A stretch of 64,000 bases of DNA from Eubacteriales bacterium (GCA_045636605.1 JAZTXV010000022.1:9883-73882), one strand, 5' to 3'; shown: positions 10,802 to 54,853, counted from the stretch's first letter. Notes: generated by a model not told the origin, from the letters alone. A program made the numbers and translations.

Positions 10802-12858
10802 TGGATTTTAAATTAGCACTGGGCTTCCTTGGACTTCTTTCAGTACCGATTATCATCCTTATTTACATCCTTAAATCCAAGTATGTATCTAAGCCTGTAT
10901 CGAGTACGTTTATTTGGAAACGAAGCCTTAAATACGTAAAAAATCGCTTGCCTATCAACTTTGTATTTTCACTATTGCTCGTTTTGCAGATTTTGGCAGC
11001 TACTCTTGCAAGCTTTGCTCTTGCAAGACCGACAATTGTTCCGCTTTCCGCAAAGGATACGGTTATCATTCTTGACGCATCAGCCAGTATGATGACCAAA
11101 AACAGCGACGGAAAGACGAGATTTGAGCTTGCTGTACAGGAAATTGAGCAGCAGGCCGCCTTCGCGGGAGACAACCACAAGTTCACTATCATTTCAGCGG
11201 ATTCAAATCCGAGGGTTCTTGTTCGCTCCTCCGAGAAGGTTAAAATTGTAAGCGCCTTGAGCGAGGCACAATGTGGACTCGGCACAGCAGATATTGATGC
11301 TGCGCTCACCCTTGCAAATGATATTCAGGCGCAAAATCCCGATGCAAAGCTCGTGTTCTACACCGATAAGACCTATTTTGACGCAAGCGGCGTCGAGATA
11401 AAGGATTTCTCAGATGATGACGACTTCAATGCCGCTATCACTAACCTGACAGATTCCTATATGGGCGGAAAATACAGCTTTAACGCAACGGTTAATCTCT
11501 ACGGCCCTGCGCCGGAGGATCCAACGGCTGTAATTCAAAAGAACGTACAGCTCGTATTCTATCTCGATGGTCAAGAGGCATACCGTAAGGACGTTACTCT
11601 TAACCTCGGCAAGAACCAGGTTACCTTTACTCACAAGGAATCTCTTGTTGCCCCCGGAGATATTTATTATCAAATCAGCTCGTTAACCGAATACACAAGC
11701 GTAAAGGTTGAAATCGCAAAGCTGACAGAGGTGGACAACACCGAGGCAGTTATCGAGGACGGTCTTTTGGAGGATAACTCACGCTATGTATTTGCTAAGG
11801 AGGGCGAGAAGGTTAAGATTCTCGTTGTCAGCACATACGTAACAATGACAGGCGACGAGGAGGGCAAGCAGCCCGAGGCGTCAACCACAAAGACAACCTA
11901 TCTTATTACGCTCTTGCGTAACATCGGTTACACGCTTAGCAACAAAACCGACATAAAGAAGGAAATTAGCCAGGTAAATAACGGCGGAGCAATAGAGGGC
12001 TATAACCTCTACATCTTCGACGGAGTAATGCCGGAGGTTCTCCCGACAGATGGCGCTGTGTGGTTCCTTAACCCGCCGTCAAACCCTGTTGGAACGGATC
12101 TTGAAATTGATGCAAAGCCCTCAACACCGAAGGATTACGGCGAAACGACCTTCTATATGCTTCCATCACCTAACGAGGGAGGAAAGACCTCTGCGGGCAT
12201 AGAGGCATTCAAGACAATTACCAGAAACATTGCTAAGAGAAGAAATATCGCTATCGGTAAATTCCGTCCGATTTTCTTCACCAACTCGGACGATTATTAC
12301 GAAATGTTCTCATGTAACAACTCGTCTATTGTGGTGGCAGGAAGAGAGGCTAATGTAAGAATTGTATGTATGTCCTTTGACATTCACGATACAAACCTTC
12401 ATATGCTCGTTGACTTCCCGCTTCTTATCAACAATATGCTTACGTACTCACTTCCGAGCGTAGTTCCGAATCGCTCCTTTGACGTAGGTGAAACCATTAA
12501 GTTCAATGCGCCCGTTGGAGCTACAGAGCTGGAGTTCCAGTACCGTCATGAAAACGGAGATATCGACGTAAAGGATAGCTTCTCGGCAGAGGACGCATCA
12601 TTTACGCTTGAGCTTTTGGGTAACTATGCAATCGTAGTTAAATACGAAAACGGATACGAAAAGACAATAATGCTGCCAACTCACATTCCTGAGGATGAAA
12701 GCGATATCACTCTTATGGGAGAGTCAATCGAATCCAAGGAGATTATCCCGGGCAATGAAATCAAGCCCGATCCTATGGAAATTTGGCCGTATATTGTAAT
12801 GGCGCTTCTTGCCATACTTATAATTGAATGGGGGGTATATTATCGTGATGAATTTTAA
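10801..12858 (+). CDS. BatA N-terminal plus vWA domain membrane protein
   Basis: N-terminal BatA-like PIIILIYIL...LARP, MIDAS DASASM, C-terminal TM ending IEW. Confidence 0.85.
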   Translation: MDFKLALGFLGLLSVPIIILIYILKSKYVSKPVSSTFIWKRSLKYVKNRLPINFVFSLLLVLQILAATLASFALARPTIVPLSAKDTVIILDASASMMTKNSDGKTRFELAVQEIEQQAAFAGDNHKFTIISADSNPRVLVRSSEKVKIVSALSEAQCGLGTADIDAALTLANDIQAQNPDAKLVFYTDKTYFDASGVEIKDFSDDDDFNAAITNLTDSYMGGKYSFNATVNLYGPAPEDPTAVIQKNVQLVFYLDGQEAYRKDVTLNLGKNQVTFTHKESLVAPGDIYYQISSLTEYTSVKVEIAKLTEVDNTEAVIEDGLLEDNSRYVFAKEGEKVKILVVSTYVTMTGDEEGKQPEASTTKTTYLITLLRNIGYTLSNKTDIKKEISQVNNGGAIEGYNLYIFDGVMPEVLPTDGAVWFLNPPSNPVGTDLEIDAKPSTPKDYGETTFYMLPSPNEGGKTSAGIEAFKTITRNIAKRRNIAIGKFRPIFFTNSDDYYEMFSCNNSSIVVAGREANVRIVCMSFDIHDTNLHMLVDFPLLINNMLTYSLPSVVPNRSFDVGETIKFNAPVGATELEFQYRHENGDIDVKDSFSAEDASFTLELLGNYAIVVKYENGYEKTIMLPTHIPEDESDITLMGESIESKEIIPGNEIKPDPMEIWPYIVMALLAILIIEWGVYYRDEF

Positions 12859-15808: not shown

Positions 15809-15817
15809 TAAAAACAT

Positions 15818-15848
15818 AAAAATCCAAGGATTTCTCCTTGGATTTTTT
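15818..15848 (+). terminator. Rho-independent terminator
   Basis: AAAAATCCAAGGA/TCCTTGGATTTTT. Confidence 0.85.
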
Positions 15849-15858
15849 GTGTCAGGTA

Positions 15859-15887
15859 TTGAAAAAATGGCGAATATATATTAAAAT
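15859..15887 (+). promoter_or_regulatory. sigmaA promoter of xylAB
   Basis: TTGAAA-17 bp-TAAAAT. Confidence 0.55.
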
Positions 15888-15918
15888 ATAGATAACAATA
15901 ATTTAAGGAGAACTAATA

Positions 15919-17235
15919 ATGGAAATTTTCAAGAATATCCCACAAATTAAGTATGAGGGCCCAAAGAGCAAAAATCCTCTTGCCTTCAAGTATTATGATG
16001 CCGACAGAGTAATTCTCGGCAAAAAAATGAGCGAGCACCTTCCCTTCGCTATGGCGTGGTGGCACAATCTTTGCGCAACGGGCGTTGATATGTTCGGCCG
16101 TGGCGTTGCCGACAAGTCCTTTGGCGCTGCCGAGGGTACAATGGAGCACGCAAGAGCTAAGGTTGATGCGGGCTTTGAGTTTATGCAAAAGCTCGGCATT
16201 AAGTATTTCTGCTTCCACGACGTTGATATCGTTCCCGAGGCAGAGGACATTAACGAAACAAATCGCCGTCTTGACGAGATAACAGATTACATTCTCGAAA
16301 AGATGAAGGGCACGGATATCAAGTGCCTTTGGGGAACTGCTAATATGTTCTCAAATCCTCGCTTCGTAAACGGCGCAGGCTCGTCAAACAGCGCAGAGGT
16401 GTTCGCATTTGCGGCAGCTCAGGTTAAAAAGGCGCTCGAGCTTACAGTGAAGCTCGGTGGACGTGGCTACGTATTCTGGGGCGGCCGTGAGGGCTACGAA
16501 ACGCTTCTCAATACCGATATGGCATTCGAGCAGGACAATATCGCTCGCTTGATGAAAATGGCAGTGGCATACGGACGCAAGATTGGCTTTACGGGCGACT
16601 TCTACATTGAGCCGAAGCCGAAGGAGCCAATGAAGCACCAATATGACTTTGATGCCGCAACCGCTATCGGATTTTTGAAGGCGCACGGCCTTGAAAACGA
16701 TTTCAAAATGAACATTGAGGCAAACCACGCAACCTTGGCAGGCCATACCTTCCAGCATGACCTTCGTGTAAGCGCAATCAACGGAATGCTCGGCTCAATC
16801 GACGCAAACCAGGGCGATATGCTTCTCGGCTGGGACACAGACGAATTCCCATTTGATGTTTACACAGCAACAATGTGTATGTATGAGGTGCTTAAGGCAG
16901 GCGGACTTACCGGTGGCTTCAACTTCGATGCAAAGAACCGCCGTCCGTCATACACGGTTGAGGATATGTTTGAGGCATTCATTCTCGGTATGGATACATT
17001 TGCTCTCGGACTTATCAAGGCAGCAGAGATTATCGAGGACGGCAGAATAGATGCGTTTATCGAAAGAAGATACTCAAGCTATACAGAAACCGAAATCGGT
17101 AAGAAAATCATGAGTGATGGTGCAACACTCGAGGAGATTGCACAGTATGCAAGCGATAAGGGCGTATGCGCACTTCCCGGCAGCGGAAAGCAGGAAAGCC
17201 TTGAGGCTATAATCAATAGCATACTTTTTGGTTAA
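15919..17235 (+). CDS. xylA: Xylose isomerase (class II)
   Basis: [38 protein letters not shown]. Confidence 0.98.
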
Positions 17236-38969: not shown

Positions 38970-38999
38970 TTGACAGCATAAAAAGTAATATAGTATAAT
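38970..38999 (+). promoter_or_regulatory. Consensus sigmaA promoter of the FtsK/WXG-like operon
   Basis: TTGACA-18 bp-TATAAT. Confidence 0.7.
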
Positions 39000-39096
39000 A
39001 TTATTATATATCGGGCGTAAAATACTTTTTGCGCCCGCCTTGTAGTTTTAAAGGGACATAATTCGACATAATTCGATATAAAAAGAGAGAAATATT

Positions 39097-39462
39097 ATGA
39101 AAGAGAAGCAAACGACAATGGCGGAATGGCCGCCGACGGGTAAGACTCCGTTCAAGGAGTATATAGAGGAGCAAATGCTTTGCGCCCACGCCGAAATGTA
39201 TTCGGGAGAGACCGCATCTCCGTATTCGAGCGAGCCGTGTAGCATTGGCGACACCGCCGAGTATGAAAAAAAGCTGAGGGCATATCGCAGATGGGCAAGA
39301 AGAATAAAGAAAATACTCCAAAACGCTATTGCCGTAATTCAGCAGAAAATAGAAACACAAGCCTACAAGCTCGAAAGAGTTCGGCGTAGCCGAAAGGAAA
39401 GGGCGCAAAGGCTTATGCTCTTTGAGGACGGGGCATCGCTTAGAATAATGGCATTCAACTAA
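39097..39462 (+). CDS. Hypothetical soluble protein; apparent stand-alone copy of the N-terminal domain of the 49180/50954/53986 membrane proteins
   Basis: In-register F..I...EM.S..T.SPY...Y..K..AY pattern shared with those proteins. Confidence 0.6.
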   Translation: MKEKQTTMAEWPPTGKTPFKEYIEEQMLCAHAEMYSGETASPYSSEPCSIGDTAEYEKKLRAYRRWARRIKKILQNAIAVIQQKIETQAYKLERVRRSRKERAQRLMLFEDGASLRIMAFN

Positions 39463-39489: not shown

Positions 39490-42400
39490 ATGATAGAAAT
39501 CACAAAAATTATGGAAGTGATCGGTAGGATCAACTCCAACTGTACGACCATTGACAACCTCGAGGTAAAGTTGACAACAGAGTACAAAAGAGAAAAGAGA
39601 ACGGTAGAGTCATCGTGTACCGAAATGGTTGCGGAAATGCGACAAAAATACGATGCGTTCAAGGATAAGCATTTCCTTAGCATCAAAAGAGATATTAACG
39701 AGCTGATAGACCTTTTGAAAAAGGACTACTCTCAGGAATGGGCAAGCGTAAGTGTAAGCACCGCCGAGTTCTCTCGTAACAGCTACGAGGAAAACGAGAA
39801 GCTTCTTCACAAGATAATAGACGAGCTCAATACCGGCATCGGCAAGCTCAACGCAGTTGACTTTGATAAGCTCGTTCCACCGGTTAAAATCGAGGTAAAC
39901 GGAGAAACCTTCACAACCTTCACGGGCAATCACGAGAACAAGACAACCTACGATACCTCGACACGCAAAAGAGAGATGATAAGAGATCCCCTTCCCATCA
40001 AGGAGCTTGCAACCGAGGTGTTCGGTCACTGTAAGAGAGCCCTTGCGTGCATCGACGCATTGATTATGCTTTACGACAGACAGTTTGACATAGGCAGCTT
40101 CGCAGCCTTTGTTGACGACAGTGCGGCGGCTTGGATGGCAGAGTTTGAGTCGAAAATCCGTACAAGGTACGTAAAGAGCTTTGATGAGCTTTTTGTTGAC
40201 GAAACAGCCGGCGCAATTCCCAAGAGCTTCTTTGTGGAGCTTGACGAGGACGGCAAGAACTCCGATGTCGATGTTGTTGTAGGAGCAAGCGGCTTCAACA
40301 GAAGCATCAACATAGGTGATATCAAGCTTCTCGTTGAGGACGAGCCGAAGCACCTTAAGTACATTCAGGGAAGCCCTGTGCTTGACAGATATCTTGAAAA
40401 CGGATATCTCAGCGCACCGCTTATTCTCGACCTGAAAAAATGCGGAAATATCGTTCTTAATGTTGACGAGGAGAATTACTCCGACAAAACGATTGATTTC
40501 GTAAATCAGCTCATTATGCAATTCCTTCTTTCCTTCCCGGCAAACAGAATCAATTTCTGTCTTGTTGACGTTGATAATAAGATGGAATTTTCACAGTTCA
40601 AGAAGCTCACAAAGATAAATAATGATATCCTTCTCGGCGGCATCGTTCGTGACGACCGTAAGCTCGAGGACACAATTAAGGATATGGAAATGAGAATGTA
40701 TAAGGTAAACGACGACGTTCTCAGCTATAACGGAGTAGAGGACATCTACGAGTACAACGATCGCTTCAAGGCGAACCCGCAAAACGTTCACCTCTTTGTT
40801 CTCTCCAACTTCCCGTCGGGAATGAGAGATGAAACCGCAAGAAAGGTTCTCAAGCTCATTCAGGCAGGAAACAAGGCAGGTATTTACACAATCGTTATCA
40901 ATAACGAGTCCTGCAACCTCGGTTCAATGTTCAAGGCAAACGAATATCAGCACTTTATGCAGAACGTATCAAGCAATGCGCTTGTAATCAATAAGGTTGG
41001 CGACAGATTCACCCTTGACCTTGACACGCCAAACTACTTCGAGCCCAAGACAGACATCAGAACCTCACAGCTTGATAGCATTATCGAAATGCTCAAGGAT
41101 CACGCAACTCAGCTCAACAAGGTTGTTATTCCTCTTGAGCAAATGTTTGAGGACACCGATGCTATGGAAAAGAGCCCGAAGGGTATTCCTCCGACAGCCT
41201 CGCTTGTCGAGATTCCTATCGGTGCAAGAGGCGGAGAGCTTCAAACCCTTGCGTTGCCTACAAACGGAGACGTTCACGCAGTTGCGATCGGTGGTACCGG
41301 CTCAGGTAAGTCCAACCTCCTCCACACAATTATTATGAGCGCCTGCTACAAGTACAGCCCCGAGGAGCTCAACATTTACCTGCTTGATCTTAAGGAGGGC
41401 GTAGAGTTCAAGTATTACGAGAACCACCGTCTGCCGCACATCAAGCTTCTTGGTGTTGATCTTAAGGAGGATATCTTCTCAGCGCTCGCAATTCTTAAAA
41501 ACCTTCAAAACGAAATCACCCGCCGTGGTGCTATATTCAGAGAATGTGGCGTTTCGCAGATTGACGAATACGTTGCTAAGGGCAAAAAGATGCCGAGAAT
41601 TCTCGTTATTATCGACGAAATTCAAGAGCTCTTTGAGATTGACGAGAAAATTGGTCAAGAGGCAGTTGCTCAGCTTGCAACCTTGTTCAAGCAGGGACGT
41701 GCATTCGGTATTAACATTCTTTGGGCTTCGCAGAACGTGCCTAACTTCCCCGGACTTAAGACAAAGGTTCTCAGCCAAATTAAGAACAGAATCAGCTTGC
41801 GTCTTAACGATCCCGACGACGCTCTCAGCATAGGAATTGATCCTAAGGCAGTTAAGAACCTCAACAGACCTGAAAAGGGACTTGGTGTTATCAACGATAT
41901 TCGTTACGGTAACGACAGCGTTGAGTTCCGTGTTGCTTACGCATACGGCGTTGATGAGCGTACCACCTTCTCCGACAAGATTGTCAAAAAGTGGAAGAAG
42001 GTTACCGATGCAGTACCGCAAGCCCCGATGTTTATCGTCGGCGGAAACGAGGATCCGTCACCTATCGAGGGCGAAACACTCTTTACTCGTATTCCAACTG
42101 AAAACGACATCGTTTACAACGAGAGCGGAATGTATAACATCCAGCTCGGTCAGGACTACGTTGCAGGAAAGCCGTTTAATATCAATATTCCCATTGGCGG
42201 CGAGAAGGCAAACGTTATCGTTGCCGGCGTAGATGTCGAGATTTCAAGAGATATGATGGGCTATGCGCTCCTTTCGCTTATCGCAAACAGAGTTACCGAT
42301 AGCCAGAGCGCAAGGGAGAACGCAAAGATCTACTACGCAAACGGCGAGATGATCAACCCGAGAAACAGCTCAGATTTGTTCAACGTAATCCGTACGGATT

Positions 42401-43077
42401 TCGAGGGCTTGGTAGAGCCTGTATCGTCGGTTGAAAGGTTTAAGCTTTGCATAAAGGATCTTTACAAGCTCTATAAGGACAGAGTTGCTCAGCGTAACGA
42501 AAGTGAGGAGCTTACAGAGTTCACACCTCGCTTCCTCGTTGTTCACTCAATCCAAAGATATGCGAGCATCTTTAATGAAAACCCAACGCTTAGCCTGAGC
42601 GACGAGGGCACCCCCAACAGCGAACCGAGCGCACCGACGCCCGCCGCAACGGGAAGCCTGTTCACCGCAGGAAGCCTGTTCTCAAGCGCATCGGCTCCCG
42701 TTACTCCGTCAAGTGCGCCGAAATCTGTATCAAGCATCCTGTTCAACTCCGCAGTTAAGGAGCTTCTCACCGAGGGCGGAGCATACGGAATTCATTTTAT
42801 CGTATCAATCGACAATCCTCTCGGCATCGGTGCTATCAAGGAGGACCTCAAGAGCAGTATGTCGATCAAGCTTCTTACAAAGGGTATTGACAGCAACGCA
42901 ACGGCTCACCTTTTGAGTGGTGACTATAAGGCGGCAGGAAGCCTCAACAACCCGAAGGTTGCTCTTGTTGCTATTGCCGATGAGCGTACTAAGATAAGAG
43001 TTTACCGCTACGATGCAGAGCAGGACGGCGGCTGGTACAAGAGGCTTTGCGAAGCATACAAGAAGCTCGGAGGCTAA
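39490..43077 (+). CDS. FtsK/SpoIIIE-family (EssC/EccC-like) ATPase, soluble
   Basis: GGTGSGKS Walker A, YSPEELNIYLLDLKEGVEF, IIDEIQELF, KQGRAFGI..ASQ; degenerate ATPase-like domains on both sides; no TM stretch seen. Confidence 0.9.
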   Translation: MIEITKIMEVIGRINSNCTTIDNLEVKLTTEYKREKRTVESSCTEMVAEMRQKYDAFKDKHFLSIKRDINELIDLLKKDYSQEWASVSVSTAEFSRNSYEENEKLLHKIIDELNTGIGKLNAVDFDKLVPPVKIEVNGETFTTFTGNHENKTTYDTSTRKREMIRDPLPIKELATEVFGHCKRALACIDALIMLYDRQFDIGSFAAFVDDSAAAWMAEFESKIRTRYVKSFDELFVDETAGAIPKSFFVELDEDGKNSDVDVVVGASGFNRSINIGDIKLLVEDEPKHLKYIQGSPVLDRYLENGYLSAPLILDLKKCGNIVLNVDEENYSDKTIDFVNQLIMQFLLSFPANRINFCLVDVDNKMEFSQFKKLTKINNDILLGGIVRDDRKLEDTIKDMEMRMYKVNDDVLSYNGVEDIYEYNDRFKANPQNVHLFVLSNFPSGMRDETARKVLKLIQAGNKAGIYTIVINNESCNLGSMFKANEYQHFMQNVSSNALVINKVGDRFTLDLDTPNYFEPKTDIRTSQLDSIIEMLKDHATQLNKVVIPLEQMFEDTDAMEKSPKGIPPTASLVEIPIGARGGELQTLALPTNGDVHAVAIGGTGSGKSNLLHTIIMSACYKYSPEELNIYLLDLKEGVEFKYYENHRLPHIKLLGVDLKEDIFSALAILKNLQNEITRRGAIFRECGVSQIDEYVAKGKKMPRILVIIDEIQELFEIDEKIGQEAVAQLATLFKQGRAFGINILWASQNVPNFPGLKTKVLSQIKNRISLRLNDPDDALSIGIDPKAVKNLNRPEKGLGVINDIRYGNDSVEFRVAYAYGVDERTTFSDKIVKKWKKVTDAVPQAPMFIVGGNEDPSPIEGETLFTRIPTENDIVYNESGMYNIQLGQDYVAGKPFNINIPIGGEKANVIVAGVDVEISRDMMGYALLSLIANRVTDSQSARENAKIYYANGEMINPRNSSDLFNVIRTDFEGLVEPVSSVERFKLCIKDLYKLYKDRVAQRNESEELTEFTPRFLVVHSIQRYASIFNENPTLSLSDEGTPNSEPSAPTPAATGSLFTAGSLFSSASAPVTPSSAPKSVSSILFNSAVKELLTEGGAYGIHFIVSIDNPLGIGAIKEDLKSSMSIKLLTKGIDSNATAHLLSGDYKAAGSLNNPKVALVAIADERTKIRVYRYDAEQDGGWYKRLCEAYKKLGG

Positions 43078-44585: not shown

Positions 44586-44861
44586 ATGGACGCATTAAAG
44601 CTGGATCCCAATTTGCTTGACGAAACGGCTCAGGCAATCACAAATTATTGCAATATGCAAAACCAGGTAATCGAGGATTATCTTTCAAAAATGAGCGCAC
44701 TTCAGGGCGAGTGGACAGACGACCAAACAATAGGGCCGCTTCTTGAGGAGATAAGGAATCTCAAATCCTCTGTTGTCGAGCTTATGGGACAAATCAACGG
44801 CTACTACCCCGGCTATTTCAGACAAAAGGCTGAGGAAATCAGAAACAGACCTACATTCTAA
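44586..44861 (+). CDS. WXG100-like protein (WTD)
   Basis: 91 aa, LDPNLL start, central EWTD; paralog of the N-terminus of 47271. Confidence 0.75.
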   Translation: MDALKLDPNLLDETAQAITNYCNMQNQVIEDYLSKMSALQGEWTDDQTIGPLLEEIRNLKSSVVELMGQINGYYPGYFRQKAEEIRNRPTF

Positions 44862-45137: not shown

Positions 45138-46820
45138 ATGGCAAGTATAAGGGCAGTAATGTCTGCAATAGAAAAATTTAATAGCCAAAGCAACGCAGGA
45201 TATTCGGAGCTGCTCGCTATGGCAAACGAAATCCTGGCACAAACCGAAAGGCTGTGTATGGAGGTCAAGGCAGATAAGGAAACGATAGACAATCAAATAT
45301 GTCGTGCATCTGCAATAAGGGACGAGGTCTCTCAAAAGGCAAGCTTCTACGAGCATCAAATGAACGGATATTATTCGGATATGAAGCGTGCCGAGGAGGA
45401 GATAGAATATGTAATGTCCCATCCGAAAACGAGAACAGTCACCGACGACGATGGTAATTCGTACGAGGTGGAGGAAATAGATTACGGCGCACTTGCCGCA
45501 GCCGAAAGAAGATACGAAAGCGCAAAGGAAAGCTATTATCATTTTGCGAACAAATATCAAGAAGCAGCGACAATAGCAGCCGATGCAGTACAGGTAATTG
45601 CAAAATTCGAGTCAATGGGAAAGGCAGTGGCATACGTTGCGGACTCCATTGAAGCGGCAACATACGAAATCAGAAAATTCATAAGACTTATGGAGGAGGA
45701 GGCAGAATACAACCTCCAAGCGCTCTCTGCGCTTATAAGCAGACTTGGAGAATATCTGTCCTCAAAGCCGATATTCCACCCCACAGGCTCAATTTCACTG
45801 AGCGCATCAGGTGGCGCATCAGGTGGCGCATCGGTCGGCTCGTCATCCTCGGTCGGCTACTCCGCCGGAGGTAGCTCTGCTTCGTCATCATCGGGAGTCA
45901 CAAGCGGCGCTGCGACCTCGGGTGGACCAAAGGAAGGCTTTTTAAGTGATTTGTTTTCTAAATGCTTCAACAGGGAAAACACTAAGTCTAAAGAAACTGT
46001 TGATATCGAAAATGCGGCTCACGAGGAATTTAAAAAATTATTAGCGTCTAAGAAAGAGATCGATATTGAAGCTCGAAATAAGGACACTTATGATTCAAAT
46101 AATGATATTGCGGGTGATGGCAATCTTTTCTACGGCGTTGGTGGAAAGCACTTAAAGCAAGCGAAAAAGGAGCTTTTGTGCAAGCAAGGCAACAATTCTC
46201 GAAATAAATTGATGCTTGCAAGCGAGAAAAAGGGCAAGAAAGAATATGCATATACCTTTAGCGGCACATGCGGACCAACAACTCTTGCCAATACCGGAAG
46301 ACAGCTCGGACTGTCAGAGTTAACCGAAGATAAGGTAGTAACCCTTGCATGTCAACTTGGATTGTGCAGACAACCCTCATATTCAGAGGATGGTAAGTAT
46401 ATTCTGCACACCGGTGGAGGAACGAATAACGAACAGATTGTGGCATTGGCGAAGCACCTTGAGCTTGAAGCGGCATATTCTCCGAGCTTAACTCTTGAAG
46501 AGCTTGACGAAACAATCAAGCGTGGAGGAGCTATGATGATGAGCGTGTATAGCGAGGATTTATCATCGAAATCGAACCCCGCAGAAAGAAAATTTAAGAA
46601 CACAAACCACTGGGTTACCGTCACAGGAGTTACAAGAGATTCTAACGGAAAAATAGCAGGAATAATGATTACCGATACGGGAGGACACGTCGAAAGCTGT
46701 GACGGTACCGATATCATCAGCATAGAAAAATTCAATGCGATGAGAAAAAATTCGGGTGATTTTGCAGGTGTTTGCCTATTCAAGCCTGAAGCTGAGGTTA
46801 AAAAAGGAGACGACGAATGA
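45138..46820 (+). CDS. Putative polymorphic effector: helical N-terminus, G/S linker, papain-like C39-type peptidase C-terminus
   Basis: KQG..GTCGPTTLAN (Cys), TNHWVTVTG (His), ITDTG (Asp). Confidence 0.7.
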   Translation: MASIRAVMSAIEKFNSQSNAGYSELLAMANEILAQTERLCMEVKADKETIDNQICRASAIRDEVSQKASFYEHQMNGYYSDMKRAEEEIEYVMSHPKTRTVTDDDGNSYEVEEIDYGALAAAERRYESAKESYYHFANKYQEAATIAADAVQVIAKFESMGKAVAYVADSIEAATYEIRKFIRLMEEEAEYNLQALSALISRLGEYLSSKPIFHPTGSISLSASGGASGGASVGSSSSVGYSAGGSSASSSSGVTSGAATSGGPKEGFLSDLFSKCFNRENTKSKETVDIENAAHEEFKKLLASKKEIDIEARNKDTYDSNNDIAGDGNLFYGVGGKHLKQAKKELLCKQGNNSRNKLMLASEKKGKKEYAYTFSGTCGPTTLANTGRQLGLSELTEDKVVTLACQLGLCRQPSYSEDGKYILHTGGGTNNEQIVALAKHLELEAAYSPSLTLEELDETIKRGGAMMMSVYSEDLSSKSNPAERKFKNTNHWVTVTGVTRDSNGKIAGIMITDTGGHVESCDGTDIISIEKFNAMRKNSGDFAGVCLFKPEAEVKKGDDE

Positions 46821-47245
46821 ATAACATAGAAAAAATAATATCGGCATGTCACTACCATAGAGAAAAAAGTCAATCGTTGTCCGTTCCGTTTATTGTCAAT
46901 GACAACGGAACAGCAAAGATATCATGCTTCACTTATGACGAGCAGGAATTTGACGATAAGAACATTGTTATATCTGTTGGCGAGGCTTTTTTGACCGATT
47001 ATGAAAAAATGCAGCTTGAAATTCTTAAGGTTACAGCTCAGCCCGACATTTTCCCGCTTGAAATCGTATATGACGATTCGGTAAGCATCACAAGAGAAAG
47101 CATAGATGCGTACTATGACTACCTTGACGAGATTATGTCAAACGGAAAAATAGACAAGGAAAAATACAAGAAACTCTTTTATACGATTTGCCCTAAAAGC
47201 CTGAAGCCTATTTATGACTTCTTCGGCGCAGAATTTATAGATTGA
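46817..47245 (+). CDS. Putative immunity protein for 45138
   Basis: Small acidic ORF overlapping the effector stop (ATGA). Confidence 0.55.
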   Translation: MNNIEKIISACHYHREKSQSLSVPFIVNDNGTAKISCFTYDEQEFDDKNIVISVGEAFLTDYEKMQLEILKVTAQPDIFPLEIVYDDSVSITRESIDAYYDYLDEIMSNGKIDKEKYKKLFYTICPKSLKPIYDFFGAEFID

Positions 47246-47270: not shown

Positions 47271-48365
47271 ATGGACGAGCTTATTTTAGATCCCAACGCT
47301 CTTGCCGAGCTGGCAAGAATAATCGAAGAATATTGTGACAAGCAGTCGGCAATTCTTGAGGAATACCAATCGAATATGTTATCCCTCGAGAGCGAATGGG
47401 ATGACGACCAAACCTTTGGCGAAATGCTAAAGGAAATATTGTCGCTAAAGCAGCAAATCCAACAAATGCTTGGGCAATTCAAGGGCTTTTACCCGCAATT
47501 TTTCAGAGAAAAAGCAGAAAAAATCGCAGGACGCCCGATATTTACAGGCGCATCGGGCGGAATTGGCTCCTTTGGCGGATTTGTCAGTGGTGGCTATGGC
47601 TCGGGTGGCGCATCCTTTGGCGGAGCATCCGGTGGTGCTTCGGGCGCAGGCTCATTCGGCTCATCCCCGTCAAGTGTGGCGGGTGGCGATTTCGTCTCTG
47701 ACGGCAAAAGACCGACCTCGCTTAAAAAAACAAGACAAGAGTGGCATATCGACGGCTATGTCAAGACCTTCAACACCCCCGTTGAAACCGGAAAGCTGCT
47801 CAACTCCAACCAAGGCGTTCCGAAATCGCTTGGCGGAGAGGGCATTGACGGATTCAGAGGAACGTGCGGACTTGTCAGCGTCGAAAACGTCTTGCGTATG
47901 GCAGGCGTAAAAATCACCGAGGCGGAAATTGTGGAATACGCAAGAACGCATATCGGCAAGGGAGAAAGAATGCTCTGCACAACAAATAATACCCCGGGCA
48001 GAAACGGCGGCACGTACCCGGAGGACAGACAGGCAATTTTAAGACACTTCGGCATTGAATCCACAATCGAAAAATATTCCCTTGATACAATGGCGTCAGC
48101 CGTTGAGCAGGGCAGAGGAGTTATCGTGTCGGTTGATGCAAACGTGCTATGGCACGGCATAAGCGTAGCAGATAAGGCGTATCACGCCGTTACGGTAACA
48201 AGCATACAAAGAGATAAAGCAACGGGCGAAATCACAGGCGTTTACGTCTGCGACTCGGGCGCAAGAGGAAGCTCAAGCGCCGTGCTTGTCCCCGTTGAAA
48301 AAATGACCTATGCCCTTGAAAACGGCACAGGTAAAATGAACGTAACAAGCACAATAATAAGGTAA
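47271..48365 (+). CDS. Putative effector: WXG100-like domain, G/S linker, C39-type peptidase
   Basis: EWDDDQT N-terminal domain; NQG..GTCGLVSVENV, YHAVTVT, VCDSG triad. Confidence 0.75.
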   Translation: MDELILDPNALAELARIIEEYCDKQSAILEEYQSNMLSLESEWDDDQTFGEMLKEILSLKQQIQQMLGQFKGFYPQFFREKAEKIAGRPIFTGASGGIGSFGGFVSGGYGSGGASFGGASGGASGAGSFGSSPSSVAGGDFVSDGKRPTSLKKTRQEWHIDGYVKTFNTPVETGKLLNSNQGVPKSLGGEGIDGFRGTCGLVSVENVLRMAGVKITEAEIVEYARTHIGKGERMLCTTNNTPGRNGGTYPEDRQAILRHFGIESTIEKYSLDTMASAVEQGRGVIVSVDANVLWHGISVADKAYHAVTVTSIQRDKATGEITGVYVCDSGARGSSSAVLVPVEKMTYALENGTGKMNVTSTIIR

Positions 48366-48377
48366 GGGTGGTGCGAT

Positions 48378-48872
48378 ATGGAATATAACGAAATCATAAA
48401 CAGAGCAATGGATGCGTTTTATGAAAGCGGCAGAGATTTCCCATCCACTATGCTTTGCCCGATATTAGAGCACGATAACGAAGGCAACGTGGTTGACAGA
48501 TTTTTGATGTGTGACGTCGTACGAAATTTCCAAAACGGAAAAATCGAAGGCATTGACGGCCCATACGAAATTTATCAGCAACGAACAGATACAGATACCA
48601 TAGGCGAATTTTTGAAGCCCGAGCAAGTAAGGTCAACTCCAAAGGAGAATGCGCCTCCTCTCACAGACGGAGTGAGCATCTCGGAATTTTCGGCGCTTTA
48701 TTTGCAGGTAAGAGAATTCGTATTCAAAAAACAGATAACAAATGCTCAAGCGGAGGCTCTTGTAAGACTCTTAACCATTTACGAGGAGCTTTTTGAGGCG
48801 GAATTTCAAGCGTTGTATCAAAGCTACGGCGCAGGCTTCTTCGATTGGGCACATTCTACGGTAAGGAGTTAA
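48378..48872 (+). CDS. Putative immunity protein for 47271
   Basis: Directly downstream of the effector; weak similarity to 46817 (P....DN.G; Y..[FY]GA.F). Confidence 0.55.
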   Translation: MEYNEIINRAMDAFYESGRDFPSTMLCPILEHDNEGNVVDRFLMCDVVRNFQNGKIEGIDGPYEIYQQRTDTDTIGEFLKPEQVRSTPKENAPPLTDGVSISEFSALYLQVREFVFKKQITNAQAEALVRLLTIYEELFEAEFQALYQSYGAGFFDWAHSTVRS

Positions 48873-48876
48873 GATA

Positions 48877-49170
48877 ATGGACAAAATAAGTGTAACCGAC
48901 GGCGCACTCTCATCTGTCAGAAGCACACTTGAGGCGCTAAAGAGTGAGCTTAGCACGGTAACGGGGCAATGCTCCTCGACTCTGAACGGAGCGCTTGACA
49001 GCTTAGACGAAAGCATAAGGGGCGCAATCGCAGAATTCGCCGAGGCAATCCAAGCCTTCAGTCAAGCGGTGGCAAACTGCGTTGACGAAAACGTTGCCGC
49101 AATCGACGAGAGACTTTCGAAGCTTCCCCCGTACGAATCACAAATATATCAAAGAAGAAATATAGGTTAA
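48877..49170 (+). CDS. WXG100-like small helical protein (LDE)
   Basis: 97 aa, ISVTDGAL start, two long amphipathic helices. Confidence 0.6.
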   Translation: MDKISVTDGALSSVRSTLEALKSELSTVTGQCSSTLNGALDSLDESIRGAIAEFAEAIQAFSQAVANCVDENVAAIDERLSKLPPYESQIYQRRNIG

Positions 49171-49179
49171 GCGAAGGAA

Positions 49180-50943
49180 ATGGATTTTAAAAAGTCAATA
49201 ACACAGCATTTAGAACGAAAATATGTTCAAATGCTTAACAGAGAAGCGCCGATACCATATACAGAGGCAGTCGGCATTGATAACAGCGACTCGTATAGCG
49301 AGAAAAGAGAAAAATATTACAGTCGACTCTCTCGGGAAAAGAACGAGTTTAACCAATCGGTAGTCAAAATAACAGATGCCGAGGCGGCTCGCTTGGGCGC
49401 AGAAAATGACGAGCTTGAAAGAATAGCGATGGCGAAATTCAGAAGGACAAGGGCAATAAGAACAATACTGTTCATTTTGCCCGTGATAGTTGCCGCCCTC
49501 GTCGGACTTGACGTGTTCACCGAATCGCACGGCCACATGGATACAATCCAATACGATTTGGGAATAGACCTTGGATGGATAATATTCTTCTATGTTTTAT
49601 TCTGCCTTGCGGCGCTCGTCGGATCGGCAATTCTGCTCAACATTTCAATGTACTCAAACGAAATGTACATAGATCGCACAACGATAATCGGCAAGAAAAA
49701 ATACAACACAATAGCTATCGTTGTATTCGCTCTTACCTTAATAATCGTGCTGATTAACGCATTTCAGCTTATTCAAAATCTCGGCAAAGGCAAGATCGTT
49801 TTGGTAGGCGCTGACCGCAGAGAGATAAAATATTTTGAAAGCGGCACGGAGTTTGTTTTCCCCGAGCCAAAAAAGGCTGACGAGAAAAAAGAGGACCATT
49901 TCATAAGATACACCTTCACGCATTGGGAAATAGGAGATGAAAAATACAATGCGGGAGATACCATAGCCCTTGACGGCTGGTACACTGCAACCGCTGTTTT
50001 TGAGGACAGAAAATGGGCAACCCTTTCGTTTTCATTCTCCAATTCGTCAATGTCCGTTGAATATGACGGCAAGACAATCAGTGTAAAATCGGGCGACCAA
50101 ATTGAGATTCCGTGCGGAACGCAGGTTAAGGTAGAGGTGGATTTCTATTATTCGGATACCTCGTTTACCGTGAACGGTAGCAGTGCAAAAAACCCGCATA
50201 GCTTCACACTGTCCTCGAACATGAGGTTCTCTGCTACAAGCTCCAGCCCGGGATGTATCGCTCCCGGAACGGAAATCGTTCTTTTTGACGGAACGGTAAA
50301 GCTTGTCGAGGAGCTTGAAATGGGAGATATGCTCCTGGTGTTCAACCACGAAAGCGGAAAATACGAGGCGCATCCGCTTCTTGCCAATATTCACGCAAAT
50401 ACAGCGCCCGACTACTTTGATGTAATAAAGCTCACGTTCTCAAACGGCAAGGAGCTTAAAATAATTGACGAGCACGGGCTTTTTGATAAGAGCCTGAATC
50501 GCTATGTTTACCTGAACGCAGAAAATGCGGGTGATTTCATAGGTCACCGCTTTGCTTGCGTTGAGCGTAGCGGCTCAGATGTGGTAACCTCGGATACAGT
50601 CTTGGAGAGCGTTACCATAACAAACGAGCTTACAAAAATCTACAATCCCGCATCAATTTGGCATATAAACCTCGTTGCAAACGATTTTCTGACGCTTTCG
50701 GCAGGTATGGTGAATTTGTTTGAATACGACGAGAATATGAAATACGATGAGGAAAAAATGCTAAGCGATATTGAAAAATACGGCTTGTTCACCTACGAGG
50801 ATTTCAAGGACTACGTGCCGTATGAGGTATATCAGATATTCCCATTCAAGTATTATAAGGTAGCAATCTCAAAGGGAGAGTTTACATACCAACGATTGCT
50901 CGGACTTATAGCGCTATACAATAACCCGGACTCTATAAGGTAA
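49180..50943 (+). CDS. Membrane protein: shared N-terminal domain, 3 TM, InlB-like repeats, Hint autoprocessing domain and C-terminal tail
   Basis: PG/CIAPGTEIVLFDGTVKLVEELEMGD (Hint block A), ELKIIDEHGLF (block B), KIYNP...NLVANDFLT. Confidence 0.8.
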   Translation: MDFKKSITQHLERKYVQMLNREAPIPYTEAVGIDNSDSYSEKREKYYSRLSREKNEFNQSVVKITDAEAARLGAENDELERIAMAKFRRTRAIRTILFILPVIVAALVGLDVFTESHGHMDTIQYDLGIDLGWIIFFYVLFCLAALVGSAILLNISMYSNEMYIDRTTIIGKKKYNTIAIVVFALTLIIVLINAFQLIQNLGKGKIVLVGADRREIKYFESGTEFVFPEPKKADEKKEDHFIRYTFTHWEIGDEKYNAGDTIALDGWYTATAVFEDRKWATLSFSFSNSSMSVEYDGKTISVKSGDQIEIPCGTQVKVEVDFYYSDTSFTVNGSSAKNPHSFTLSSNMRFSATSSSPGCIAPGTEIVLFDGTVKLVEELEMGDMLLVFNHESGKYEAHPLLANIHANTAPDYFDVIKLTFSNGKELKIIDEHGLFDKSLNRYVYLNAENAGDFIGHRFACVERSGSDVVTSDTVLESVTITNELTKIYNPASIWHINLVANDFLTLSAGMVNLFEYDENMKYDEEKMLSDIEKYGLFTYEDFKDYVPYEVYQIFPFKYYKVAISKGEFTYQRLLGLIALYNNPDSIR

Positions 50944-50953
50944 GGAGATAAAA

Positions 50954-53833
50954 ATGAACTTCAGACAATCAACCACACAGCACGCAGAGCAAAAATACAC
51001 AAAAATGCTTGACAGAGCAACACCCTCGCCCTACACCAAGGGCGTCGTCGTTGACTCGAGTGGCACATATAGCTCAAAGCGTGACTCATACTATAGCCGC
51101 CTTTCTCGTGAAAAAAATGAATTCAACAAGGCCCTAAAAGAGGTAAAGGACGCAGAGGCGGCTCGCCTTGGCGCTGAAAACGAAAGGCTTGAAGCGGCGG
51201 CAAGGGCAAAATACAGGATTTTCAAGACATTAAAAATCCTTACATTTTTGCTTCCGATTTTAATGGCGGCTATCACGGGAGTTGAGATTTTCTCCCAAAA
51301 AGCTCTTTTTGATCAAATGACAGATGTACCCTATATTTTCTTCTGGGTAGTATTTTCTCTTGTGTCGCTTATTGCATCAATCAGGCTTATTACCTCACTC
51401 AACAACAATCAAATCTACTATAACAGAAATCACATATCCGAAAGCGCAAAATACACCACCCTTGCGATAGTCACAACGGCTGTCGTTTTGGGAATACTTA
51501 TATTCTTCTTCTCGCTTACAGGCTCAATTTTGCCACAAAAGCACGATTTCGTGTTCGTGGAAAGAGGCGGAGAATACTACCTCACAGGCTACACGGGAAA
51601 CAGCCCGCTTTTAGTCTTGCCCGAGGATTACGAGGGACAATCCTACCGTATCGCTGAAGGCGCATTCCAGGATCTTGACGAGGCAACAAGCGTCAGAATT
51701 CCGGAAAAGGTGCTTTCAATCGACAACGATGCCTTCGACGGCTGTAATCTTACGAGCATAACAATTCTCAACAAGGATATCGAGCTCAGAGGAAGCCGCG
51801 CCTTTGGCGATTCCTACGATAACAAAAATATTGAATACATCGAAGCGCCCACGCAGGTGTTGAGCCAGCTCCATCTTGGCAACGCACTCAAAACGGCAAT
51901 TGTTACCGGTGGCGAAACCGTTCCCGCAAACGCCTTCAAAAGCTGCTACTCAATAGAAACACTTAAGATTGCAAGCAGTGTAACCTTGCTCGAGGCAGGC
52001 GCATTCAACACAAGCCTTGCTCCCACTCACATCGACGTTCCGGCATATGCGCTTAAAATTATAGGCTCAAAGAATTTTGAAACCGTAGTTATAAACACGG
52101 GATATAACATTCTTGACAATTCCTTTTCGGGCGCATCCAAGCTTACAAGCGTAAAGCTTCCAAACACACTGCAAACAATAGGCGAAAAGGCGTTCTATAA
52201 CTGCACCTCTCTTACAAGCGTGGAAATCCCAAGCGGAGTAATCTCGATTGGCGCAAACGCATTCTACAACTGCCCAATCGAAAGCATAAGCATTCCAAAC
52301 GGAGTAACCGTTATACCCGAGCAGGCATTTGCAGGCACCGCTCTTAAAGCGGTGGAGATTCCCGAGAGCGTAACCGAAATCGGCACGTATGCGTTTAGCG
52401 ATTGCACCGCTCTTAAAACGGTAGAAATTTCCGAGGGCGTAACCGACATCGGCACGTATGCGTTTAGCAATTGCACCTCTCTTGAAAGTGTAAGCATTCC
52501 GTCCACGATGACAAAAATCAATGAAAGAGCCTTCAAAAACTGCTCCTCACTTAAGAGCATAGAAATTCCCAAGAATGTAACCGAAATTGGCTCATCTGCC
52601 TTCTACGGCTGCAGCTCACTTACAAGCGTTGTCGTTCCCGAGTCCGTAACTGCAATTGGATACGGTGCCTTCTGTGGCTGCAATTCTCTTGTGGAAATAA
52701 CACTTCCGTTCATCGGAAAAGATTATTCTCCCGCCGAGGTGCGTTGGACTACCTTCGGTTACATATTCGGCGACAAGGATGATGACGGCTATATGTCCTC
52801 ATCATACAGCAGCACCTATAAAACAAGCGATTCAAGCGAATATACAACTCAAAACGGTTATTACTTCTATATCCCCGATTCGCTCAAAAAGGTAACGATA
52901 ACAAATCAGTCAACCGTGTGTGATTATGCCTTTGCAAACTGCGATTTGATTGAAACCATCGAATATTCAAACGACATAACCTCACTTGGCAAATACGCAT
53001 TCTCAAATTGCGGCTCTATTGAGCAAATCCCCGATCTTAAAATAACATCAATCCCCGAAAGGGCATTCTCTGCGTGCTACGCTCTTACAAGCATAGAAAT
53101 CCCCGAGGACATAACCGAAATCGGCACGTATGCGTTTAGCGATTGCAGCACCCTTACAAGCATAGTATTGCCCGTGTCATTGGGAAAAATATACTCTTAC
53201 GCCTTTAGCAACTGCACGTCACTTGAAAGCCTCGTAATTCCAAAAAATGTAACAGAAATAGGAACAGGCGCATTCTCGGGCTGCACAGCTGTTACGGAGA
53301 TTGCCTTCAATGCATCAACAATGAACGACCTAAAAAGCTCCAACTACGTATTTTACAACGTTGGAAAGGAAGCGGACGGAATAAAGCTTACAATAGGCAA
53401 TAGCGTAACAAAAATTCCGGCATATCTGTTCTACCCATACAGTAGCTCATCATATGCTCCGAAAATAACGAGTGTTTCCTTTGAGCAGAACAGCGTATGT
53501 CAGAGCATAGGAAATTACGCCTTTAACTGTTGCTCATCGCTTGTGAGCATAGTATTCCCAACCTCGCTCACCGAGATAGGCTATGCGGCATTTACGAGCT
53601 GCACATCTCTTACAACGATAGATATTCCAAGCAGCGTAAAATACATCGGCGCATACGCATTCCAGGCCTGCTCATCTCTTACAACTGCAATCTTTGCAGT
53701 ACCAAGCGGATGGTTCCGTACGTCAAGCAGCACAGCGACAAGTGGAACGGTTATCAATAACCTCGGCAATACCTCAACTGCTGCACAATACCTAAAATCA
53801 ACCTATTACAACTACTACTGGAAGCGCAGCTGA
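50954..53833 (+). CDS. Membrane protein: shared N-terminal domain, 3 TM, BspA-type LRR_5 array
   Basis: Many L.S..IP.SVT.IG..AF..C repeats. Confidence 0.88.
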   Translation: MNFRQSTTQHAEQKYTKMLDRATPSPYTKGVVVDSSGTYSSKRDSYYSRLSREKNEFNKALKEVKDAEAARLGAENERLEAAARAKYRIFKTLKILTFLLPILMAAITGVEIFSQKALFDQMTDVPYIFFWVVFSLVSLIASIRLITSLNNNQIYYNRNHISESAKYTTLAIVTTAVVLGILIFFFSLTGSILPQKHDFVFVERGGEYYLTGYTGNSPLLVLPEDYEGQSYRIAEGAFQDLDEATSVRIPEKVLSIDNDAFDGCNLTSITILNKDIELRGSRAFGDSYDNKNIEYIEAPTQVLSQLHLGNALKTAIVTGGETVPANAFKSCYSIETLKIASSVTLLEAGAFNTSLAPTHIDVPAYALKIIGSKNFETVVINTGYNILDNSFSGASKLTSVKLPNTLQTIGEKAFYNCTSLTSVEIPSGVISIGANAFYNCPIESISIPNGVTVIPEQAFAGTALKAVEIPESVTEIGTYAFSDCTALKTVEISEGVTDIGTYAFSNCTSLESVSIPSTMTKINERAFKNCSSLKSIEIPKNVTEIGSSAFYGCSSLTSVVVPESVTAIGYGAFCGCNSLVEITLPFIGKDYSPAEVRWTTFGYIFGDKDDDGYMSSSYSSTYKTSDSSEYTTQNGYYFYIPDSLKKVTITNQSTVCDYAFANCDLIETIEYSNDITSLGKYAFSNCGSIEQIPDLKITSIPERAFSACYALTSIEIPEDITEIGTYAFSDCSTLTSIVLPVSLGKIYSYAFSNCTSLESLVIPKNVTEIGTGAFSGCTAVTEIAFNASTMNDLKSSNYVFYNVGKEADGIKLTIGNSVTKIPAYLFYPYSSSSYAPKITSVSFEQNSVCQSIGNYAFNCCSSLVSIVFPTSLTEIGYAAFTSCTSLTTIDIPSSVKYIGAYAFQACSSLTTAIFAVPSGWFRTSSSTATSGTVINNLGNTSTAAQYLKSTYYNYYWKRS

Positions 53834-53985: not shown

Positions 53986-54810
53986 ATGAATTTTGGACAG
54001 TCAATCCTAAAACACACAGAGAAAAAATATACCGATATGCTAAGCAGAGCAACACCCTCGCCCTATACCAAGAGCGAGAGTGTTGACTCAAGTAATCCGT
54101 ATAGCTCTAAGCGTGATGCATACTACAATCGCCTCGCTCGTGAAAGACGGGAGTTCAACGGTGCGCTTGATACGATTTTAGACACAGAGGACGCTCGTTT
54201 AAGAGAAGAAAGAAATCTAAAGGAAAGAAAGCGCCGCGACCGTCGCCGTGCAAGGAAAGTAAACCTTCCGTTTATTCTGTCAATTATTCTTTCCCTTGCC
54301 GTGACCTTTGTGGTTGTGCCTCTCGAGGCATACGCCTGGGTGGCAGAAACGCTCATACCCTCGGCTTCACTTGCAAATTTCTTTAACACCGGGCCAAACG
54401 GAGAGGGAATTCTCGCATTACAACTAACCCTTGCGCTATTTTTGATAAGCTTGCTAATAGCAATAATTATCATGATAAAAAAAGAGGGATTTTTGGCTTT
54501 CTTGGGGTTCATTTGGACAAGCTTTTTAGTGCTTTTGTTCCTTGGCTCAATCATTTTGGGAATTCTGTTCTGCGTATTTAGATTTTTGGTATTTTTGATT
54601 TCGTACGTATCGTTTGCACTTGTCAGCTCTGTTGCCCCGTTGGCGCTCGGAGTGGCATCGATCACCCTTATGATAATATACGGCAGGGGAATGGAGCTTA
54701 AGCGCAACAAGGCTAAGACCGCTATAAAAATCGTGGCAGGCGTTTTGATAGCCGTAGTTCTTTTCGGCTTGGCAGACAGCGCAATGCCATACTATTACTC
54801 AATTTTCTAA
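53986..54810 (+). CDS. Membrane protein: shared N-terminal domain plus ~5 TM helices
   Basis: N-terminus clearly similar to 50954, then hydrophobic segments only. Confidence 0.8.
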   Translation: MNFGQSILKHTEKKYTDMLSRATPSPYTKSESVDSSNPYSSKRDAYYNRLARERREFNGALDTILDTEDARLREERNLKERKRRDRRRARKVNLPFILSIILSLAVTFVVVPLEAYAWVAETLIPSASLANFFNTGPNGEGILALQLTLALFLISLLIAIIIMIKKEGFLAFLGFIWTSFLVLLFLGSIILGILFCVFRFLVFLISYVSFALVSSVAPLALGVASITLMIIYGRGMELKRNKAKTAIKIVAGVLIAVVLFGLADSAMPYYYSIF

Positions 54811-54822
54811 TAGCTAAAAAAT

Positions 54823-54853
54823 AAAACGGACTGCCGTCGGGCAGTCCGTTTTT
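54823..54853 (+). terminator. Terminator ending the FtsK/WXG-like operon
   Basis: AAAACGGACTGCC/GGCAGTCCGTTTTT. Confidence 0.85.

Follow-up and report, generated by a model that had tools for sequence, protein, structure and literature searches.

The window is a 64,000-nt stretch from a Eubacteriales bacterium (JAZTXV010000022.1:9883-73882 of GCA_045636605.1), and the features that concern us are collected in Table 1. Genes and their products are named here by the first nucleotide of the gene. The gene at 39097 has an ATG start and 121 codons on the + strand, and the gene for a large ATPase (1195 codons) starts 27 nt past its stop. A promoter-like match lies approximately 100 nt upstream of the start codon. 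This arrangement agrees with a preliminary description of the region, drawn up from the sequence alone, in which 39097 was taken to be the first gene of an operon. A hairpin after the last module-bearing gene is likely to be the operon end, and downstream of it are a RecQ-like helicase and SbcCD-like genes. No GC anomaly was found over the operon.

Table 1. Features of the operon and its 5' leader, in window coordinates (TM, transmembrane).
Feature	Coordinates	Strand	Basis
Promoter-like TTGACA-18-TATAAT	38970..38999	+	12/12 sigma-70 consensus positions; consensus match only
Stem-loop in 5' leader, 11 pairs	39012..39037	+	Sequence
Predicted 121-aa TM-less paralogue of the N-terminal module	39097..39462	+	BLASTP, HMM, hhalign, hydropathy scan
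FtsK/SpoIIIE (EssC/EccC-like) ATPase, 1195 aa, without TM segment, residues 1-560 family-specific	39490..43077	+	PF01580 E 5.1e-33
Small helical protein, 102 aa	43047..43355	+	Weak WXG100 match E 0.043, below cut-off
Single-domain FtsK/SpoIIIE ATPase, separate gene, 308 aa	43357..44283	+	PF01580 E 5.2e-15; EssC model E 1.3e-19, below cut-off
Three small helical proteins, 100, 91 and 84 aa	44268..45136	+	WXG100-like at best
Candidate effector, 560 aa: helical N-terminus, G/S-rich linker, Peptidase_C39_2-like C-terminus	45138..46820	+	PF13529 E 2.2e-5, 25.5 bits vs cut-off 24
142-aa protein, candidate immunity partner	46817..47245	+	Gene order only; no family match
Candidate effector, 364 aa: G/S-rich linker, Peptidase_C39_2-like C-terminus	47271..48365	+	PF13529 E 5.3e-8
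164-aa protein (candidate immunity partner, by position) and 97-aa helical protein	48378..49170	+	Gene order, sequence
Membrane protein, 587 aa: N-terminal module, 3 TM-like segments, Hint-like domain	49180..50943	+	Hint E 8.7e-4, below cut-off
Membrane protein, 959 aa: N-terminal module, 3-4 TM-like segments, BspA-type LRR region	50954..53833	+	LRR_5 E 1.9e-142
Membrane protein, 274 aa: N-terminal module and multi-helix membrane domain	53986..54810	+	Hydropathy scan, AF2
GC-rich hairpin, 13 pairs, right after last module gene	54823..54852		Sequence

An alternative start for the 39097 ORF is possible at M8 (position 39118), which would give a protein of 114 aa, and a 114-aa version recorded on a 100.9-kb contig implies use of this codon. 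We favour the start at 39097 because residues 1-5 (M-K/R-E-K-Q) are conserved with P0089, one of the relatives described below. In the leader (39012-39077) the stem-loop is followed by a 10-nt tandem repeat, ACATAATTCG x2, which is polymorphic between strains. A search of the leader against Rfam returned only tpke11 (E 0.054), under its gathering score. Variation was read from contigs of four runs, all animal gut or faecal metagenomes by record. The 300 nt upstream of 39097 contain four indel rows at three places (one 1-nt insertion and three 10-nt deletions). The insertion, a T after 39025 in the loop of the stem-loop, is present in contigs from 4/4 runs, and the deletions at 39055-39068 remove one copy of ACATAATTCG, with a single copy found in contigs from 3/4 runs. 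Inside the ORF the same data contain 11 variable sites and zero indels or stops. Four of these sites are synonymous and seven nonsynonymous (mostly conservative), giving a pN/pS of approximately 0.45 from this small number of sites. The ORF is predicted to be a real gene for a cytoplasmic protein of 121 aa.

A hydropathy scan of 15 operon proteins placed TM-like segments only in 49180, 50954 and 53986. The count of 3-4 for 50954 in Table 1 reflects an overlap between two of its four TM-like windows. In 49180 the Hint-like match covers residues 351-441, an arrangement that recalls self-cleaving polymorphic toxins. The operon also encodes five small helical proteins of 84-102 aa, two of which match WXG100 (PF06013) below cut-off, the 84-aa protein at E 0.012 and the 102-aa protein at E 0.043; no WXG100 match was found for those of 100 and 91 aa. 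The 102-aa ORF has a TTG start and a 31-nt overlap with the 3' end of the ATPase gene, and its true start may be further in. The N-terminus of the 364-aa candidate effector is a paralogue of the free 91-aa protein, encoded at 44586-44861.

From these sequences we infer that the operon encodes a toxin-export system of T7SS-like (type VII) character. The EssC/EccC equivalog models match the 39490 ATPase far under their cut-offs, and its solved relatives in the PDB are EccC, YukB and FtsK. TM-like segments were absent from both operon ATPases in the hydropathy scan. A search with ATPase residues 1-560 recovered 86 proteins at E<=0.001, including the window's own. Matches to 83 of the others are strong (31-70% identity) and two are weak, most of these proteins are 1190-1280 aa long, and their sources are named only as Clostridia or Lachnospiraceae MAG proteins. 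TM-like windows were flagged in 22/86 homologues, mostly a single internal window at about residue 341 of proteins of ~1,205 aa, which we read as a buried helix. Some homologues (P0135, P0136, P0139, P0142, P0149 and P0166) carry N-terminal additions, either helix-like and of ~63 residues or of ~320 residues with Sel1 repeats, and P0135 has a fused copy of the single ATPase domain ahead of the main ATPase. None of the 86 is a fusion of the ATPase with the N-terminal module of the membrane proteins (best E 0.14 with HMMs of the soluble and membrane forms of the module), and by the same test the ~63-residue extensions are not related to the 39097 protein. Searches of the genome (73% complete) revealed neither YukD/EsaB (PF08817) nor EssB/YukC (PF10140), and a tblastn search of plasmids and phages with the ATPase N-terminus gave no match.

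The preliminary description had proposed that the product of 39097 is a free, soluble copy of a domain that heads the membrane proteins, on the strength of an alignment with 53986. That ungapped alignment of 25 residues is exact as described, with F, I, M, S, T and SPY identical (8/25), and the further match of YEKKLRAY to YSSKRDAY is indeed one residue out of register. The absence of a TM segment was likewise borne out, since no TM-like segment appears in the 39097 protein with a 19-residue hydropathy window and a cut-off of 1.6. The strongest pairwise partner is 49180, not 53986. BLASTP aligns the 39097 protein with 49180 at E 8e-7 (26% identity over 97 residues), from F19 of the soluble protein to just short of the TM1 start of the membrane protein; the corresponding values are E 0.024 for 53986 and only E 0.55 for the N-terminus of 50954.

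Two further module-bearing proteins are encoded on other contigs of the genome (a 1.6-Mb assembly). These genes (C33:21328-22590 and C27:22706-24538 of G000; loci L003 and L005) encode the module fused to BspA-type LRR regions, and they adjoin unrelated housekeeping-type genes outside the operon. An HMM of the genome's five modules scored the 39097 ORF at 20.0 bits, a value equalled by 0/5000 shuffles (4985 scored, maximum 11.1), and over the six-frame genome found the same ORF at E 1.1e-3.

A five-row profile of the genomic modules was searched against 1.84 billion representative proteins. It recovered 124 proteins at E<=1e-3, including 68 at E<=1e-10. The module starts at residue 1 in nearly all of them, and a TM-like segment, usually starting at residues 86-96, follows it in 109/124. 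The 39097 protein is unlike these 109, as its module begins at residue 19 and is followed by no TM-like segment. A closer look at the 15 members without a TM-like segment reveals eight that are fragment-like (<=93 aa), four oddities (P0050, P0075, P0108, P0119) and three that resemble the 39097 protein. These three are P0089 (124 aa, E 1.3e-7), P0112 (119 aa, E 9.7e-5) and P0120 (115 aa, E 3.3e-4), and BLASTP aligns them to the 39097 protein at E 3e-12, 4e-13 and 2e-20, respectively, with 30-36% identity. All four soluble proteins have an N-terminal extension of ~18 residues, a DMY-G-T-SPY loop and a C-terminal RKER..RLL(L/F)(Y/F) patch. P0089, P0112 and P0120 are encoded on ENA/Logan contigs of 0.7-3.8 kb.

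Other searches with these proteins returned little. A locus search with the soluble subfamily found nothing in genome contigs or metagenome contigs. Word-based protein searches recovered only the protein's own 97%-identical cluster with the 121-aa protein, and no protein of 55-175 aa with the 100-aa module. PHROGs gave no match for the 121-aa protein. Neither module nor soluble protein matched a Pfam family at E<=0.1 or an NCBIfam family at E<=0.01, and both therefore belong to unannotated families.

For profile comparison and phylogeny, 71 membrane-form modules were taken from P0003-P0088 (86 proteins) once proteins of <180 aa, soluble proteins and five whose N-termini were offset had been removed. 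An HMM of these modules found the 39097 ORF at E 5.1e-9 among the 18,586 six-frame ORFs of the genome, and its only matches there were this ORF and the five paralogues. Reciprocally, an HMM of the soluble proteins recovered all five paralogues (E 2.5e-10 to 7.7e-5) and no further genome ORF at E<=0.1. In hhalign, the four soluble proteins aligned with the 71 modules over 87 columns with a probability of 99.2% (E 6e-20); the comparison was weaker (49.8%, E 1.7e-4) with just the five genomic paralogues as the profile. The profile comparison suggested in the preliminary description as a check is thus significant. In a maximum-likelihood tree (75 rows, 104 columns) the four soluble proteins fall on a single branch (ultrafast bootstrap 98, SH-aLRT 89), which recurs in 96% of the 200 bootstrap trees. 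This branch sits apart from the window's own paralogues and has a membrane form of 203 aa as its sister. As profile searches, hhalign and tree agree, the 39097 protein is almost certainly homologous to the ~90-residue cytoplasmic N-terminal module of 49180, 50954 and 53986. Moreover, because the four TM-less proteins form a clade of their own, the soluble form appears to be an old lineage and not a local truncation.

Structure prediction gave a similar picture. The AF2 model of the 39097 protein (61-row alignment; pLDDT 85.5, pTM 0.51) has helices at residues 19-26, 29-36 and 53-120, with SPY in the loop before the long helix. In that of the 53986 protein (48-row alignment; pLDDT 90.9) the helices span 3-10, 13-19 and 37-110, the last of which continues directly into TM1. 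The order of elements is identical in the two models, with an offset of 16-17 residues, but it is the order that was compared, and the likeness is partly a product of the input because the alignments share many rows. The soluble and membrane forms are not predicted to differ in fold, as their secondary-structure order matches. In these models the family module is a 'head-and-stalk', in which a G-x-T-P-x-P-Y/F loop connects a pair of short helices to a long, basic one. With Foldseek, neither model matched a PDB structure at E<=0.001; coiled coils or ABC-transporter helices came closest (E ~1-4). Searches of the ESM Atlas were uninformative (scores 0.79 and 0.84).

Both the module and this type of ATPase are rare in the genomes searched. 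For the module, 0/40 relatives gave a match, and the other 399 genomes scored from the class gave one that was marginal. One marginal match to the ATPase N-terminus came from 400 other genomes of the order, and 0/163 genomes matched in the family of G811. An ATPase-based locus search found only locus L011 and an unrelated partial match (L012), and a search of metagenome contigs with the ATPase N-terminus found nothing. L011 is from a Clostridia MAG. Its ATPase homologue has 38% identity across residues 1-560 (45% for the best segment by tblastn) and is followed by four small helical proteins. Further downstream are genes for two membrane proteins that bear the module, a 142-aa protein with a single TM segment and a 484-aa protein containing a PDZ domain. 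The upstream flank of L011 (876-4247) encodes a KilA-N protein, a reverse transcriptase and a 385-aa FtsK-gamma-domain protein, and the downstream flank (12636-17120) a SUFU-like protein and an SNF2-type helicase; by sequence, these flanking genes are mobile- or defence-looking. In both genomes with readable context, that of the window and that of L011, the ATPase type and the module therefore occur within one gene cluster. The earlier proposal that 39097 ties the two ends of the operon into one system gains from this, as the two ends are linked by homology and the pairing of ATPase type with module-bearing membrane proteins is seen again in L011. A soluble copy of the module is absent from L011 and from its whole genome. 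As this genome has the ATPase and modules without it, the soluble copy is not a universal part of the system.

Column statistics identify a conserved module head (F3, Y15, M18, G21, P26, Y39, Y46, R49, L50, E53, F57, N58, A60) and a charged stalk of low conservation at positions 73-88. The 39097 protein keeps 11 of the 22 module columns with >=60% consensus. From the tested conserved set it retains F, M, G, P, Y, Y and A, and has L in place of F57. Four further residues are replaced, namely R49 (71/71 modules) by W66, E53 (70/71) by I70, N58 (68/71) by Q75 and L50 (64/71) by A67. All four of these are kept in P0089 and P0112, and are lost also in P0120. If R49, L50, E53 and N58 make contact with a partner, the 39097 protein cannot bind that partner in the same way, since it has lost them. 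The preliminary description had envisaged a soluble decoy or adaptor that competes with the membrane versions for the ATPase. A free, TM-less copy of the module is indeed present. However, with the most invariant module residues lost and the soluble proteins in a separate, old clade that has an N-terminal extension and a C-terminal motif of its own, a simple decoy role is unlikely.

We propose instead that the module would be the cytoplasmic contact at which the membrane components meet the soluble ATPase. The soluble paralogue would be made off the same transcript, just ahead of the ATPase, and may contact the N-terminal region of the ATPase, where its role would be that of an adaptor or an assembly regulator and not that of an exact competitor. 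A co-fold of the 39097 protein (4-row alignment) with ATPase residues 1-560 (16-row alignment) scored 0.56, 0.54 and 0.60 (median 0.56) vs 0.00 for the best of three controls, with contact agreement of >=87% across the three runs and a partner pLDDT of >=69. The pass mark used is reached by 58/80 solved complexes and 2/110 mismatched pairs, and the passes scoring <=0.60 comprise 7/80 solved complexes and both passing mismatches. Because few solved complexes and both mismatches pass in this range, the verdict on the co-fold is 'weak support'; passes this weak are wrong in the majority of cases, unless the pairing was already likely on other grounds. The co-fold model nudges the odds toward binding between the 39097 protein and the ATPase. 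Counting against a dock for the ATPase are the two module paralogues outside the operon, which lie by unrelated genes and are fused to LRR surface domains. On sequence, such placement is equally compatible with a dock for the ATPase and with a module for anchoring or targeting in general. Taken as a whole (homology, module as ATPase contact, and 39097 protein as ATPase-binding adaptor or regulator), the proposal is tentative and stands somewhat short of probable. A wider scheme, in which a soluble EssC-like ATPase would be recruited to interchangeable membrane 'ports' (a shared module with an LRR, Hint, PDZ or multi-TM outer domain) and the soluble paralogue would gate or prime the process, must be considered rather speculative and is, on balance, unlikely.

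The 39097 protein might instead have the membrane proteins, not the ATPase, as its target, with helix 53-120 pairing with the juxtamembrane helices of the membrane paralogues and thereby adding a TM-less head to a heteromeric bundle or capping that bundle. A single 68-residue helix (pLDDT 91-98 over residues 51-110), together with the low pTM of 0.51, is as expected of an elongated chain that needs a partner. Moreover, the family helix is amphipathic (periodicity peak 3.6 residues) with conserved L50, F57, A60, L61 and I64, and the C-terminal RLL(L/F)(Y/F) patch aligns to the TM1 start of the membrane forms. However, an ATPase co-fold above its controls is not something that such pairing requires, and we think this reading unlikely. 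Alternatively, the module may be a recognition tag which the ATPase reads on client membrane or surface proteins, with the soluble copy a competitor, chaperone or pilot that tunes the clients. The module heads very diverse C-termini in proteins of 53-1601 aa, and its carriers include the off-operon LRR proteins, the Hint-like protein and the PDZ protein of L011; it is characteristic of polymorphic toxin and surface-protein families that variable cargo follows an N-terminal trafficking domain which stays constant. Yet TM segments come directly after the module, which should therefore remain cytoplasmic. In addition, N-in signal-anchor proteins need no special exporter, and the hydropathy scan revealed no other candidate membrane conduit in the operon. 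We judge a tag of this kind to be about as unlikely as stalk-pairing, and both are serious rivals of the preferred reading.

The protein might be a non-functional remnant, a membrane paralogue cut off at TM1 and drifting, given that its alignment stops where TM1 begins, that the most invariant module residues are gone and that the pN/pS of ~0.45 is based on only 11 sites. However, four TM-less lineages at 30-36% identity share length, N-terminal extension and C-terminal motif in one clade, and contigs from the four runs have an ORF free of indels and stops beneath an upstream spacer with indels. The strong promoter match and the tight spacing to the ATPase gene also speak against decay, and we regard a remnant as very improbable. 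The Arg/Lys-rich residues 58-105, and the position of the gene first in the operon behind a stem-loop leader, could also suggest a regulator whose very basic long helix binds DNA or RNA and controls the operon. Against this, the protein matched no DNA-binding family at E<=0.1 (Pfam) or E<=0.01 (NCBIfam), nor any PDB structure with Foldseek, and its basic helix derives from the juxtamembrane stalks of membrane proteins, in which topology leads one to expect positive charge. Such a regulator seems highly unlikely.

The preferred reading, a module that links the ATPase to the membrane with a soluble paralogue acting on the same ATPase, can be set against known systems. In T7SSb, EssB/YukC is described as a membrane protein whose cytoplasmic pseudokinase domain contacts the FHA domains of EssC (main text of PMC11217815). 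Like EssB/YukC, the module proteins have a cytoplasmic N-terminal domain followed by a TM segment, are encoded with an EssC-like ATPase and, as proposed here, may link that ATPase to the membrane. Unlike EssB/YukC, the module is of ~90 residues, purely helical in prediction and without sequence relation to it, and PF10140 was not found in the genome; the ATPase, unlike EssC of T7SSb, is without FHA domains and without TM segments. We know of no soluble EssB paralogue.

The main text of Garrett, Higginson & Palmer (2024, PMC11217815) sets out T7SS subtypes a-j; the ATPase is membrane-bound in every one of them, and a YukD-like protein occurs in most. The operon shares with them a multi-domain FtsK/SpoIIIE ATPase related to EssC/EccC, clusters of helical proteins of ~100 aa and candidate toxin-immunity pairs. 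It differs from the subtypes described there in that its ATPase is without TM segments and has a family-specific N-terminus of 560 residues, and in that one ATPase domain is a separate gene. Unlike in most of those subtypes, YukD was not found in the genome (73% complete), and neither was YukC. The operon does not fit any of the ten subtypes as described in the main text of that account. Within the full-text literature searched, no description was found of a TM-less EssC-like system or of a head-and-stalk module.

The small soluble accessory proteins of T7SSs, namely EsaB/YukD, EsaE and EspG, are cytoplasmic, have genes next to that of the ATPase and are believed to function in assembly or in the delivery of substrates (PMC11217815). 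The 39097 protein resembles EsaB/YukD, EsaE and EspG in that it is small, predicted to be cytoplasmic and encoded next to the ATPase. However, it is unrelated to them in sequence, is predicted to form a helical head on a long single helix and, on the homology above, is a paralogue of a domain that belongs to membrane proteins of the same system.

Known type VII systems have a motor ATPase held in the membrane by TM helices of its own, and work continues on how it is coupled to the remaining membrane components. The ATPase of this operon is predicted to have no anchor, and the sole membrane proteins of the operon share a small cytoplasmic module of which a free copy is also present. If the module is the docking point, then the ~90-residue module and the ATPase N-terminal domain would make a simple, separable pair for studies of ATPase recruitment, and a further architecture would be added to the T7SS family in gut Clostridia.
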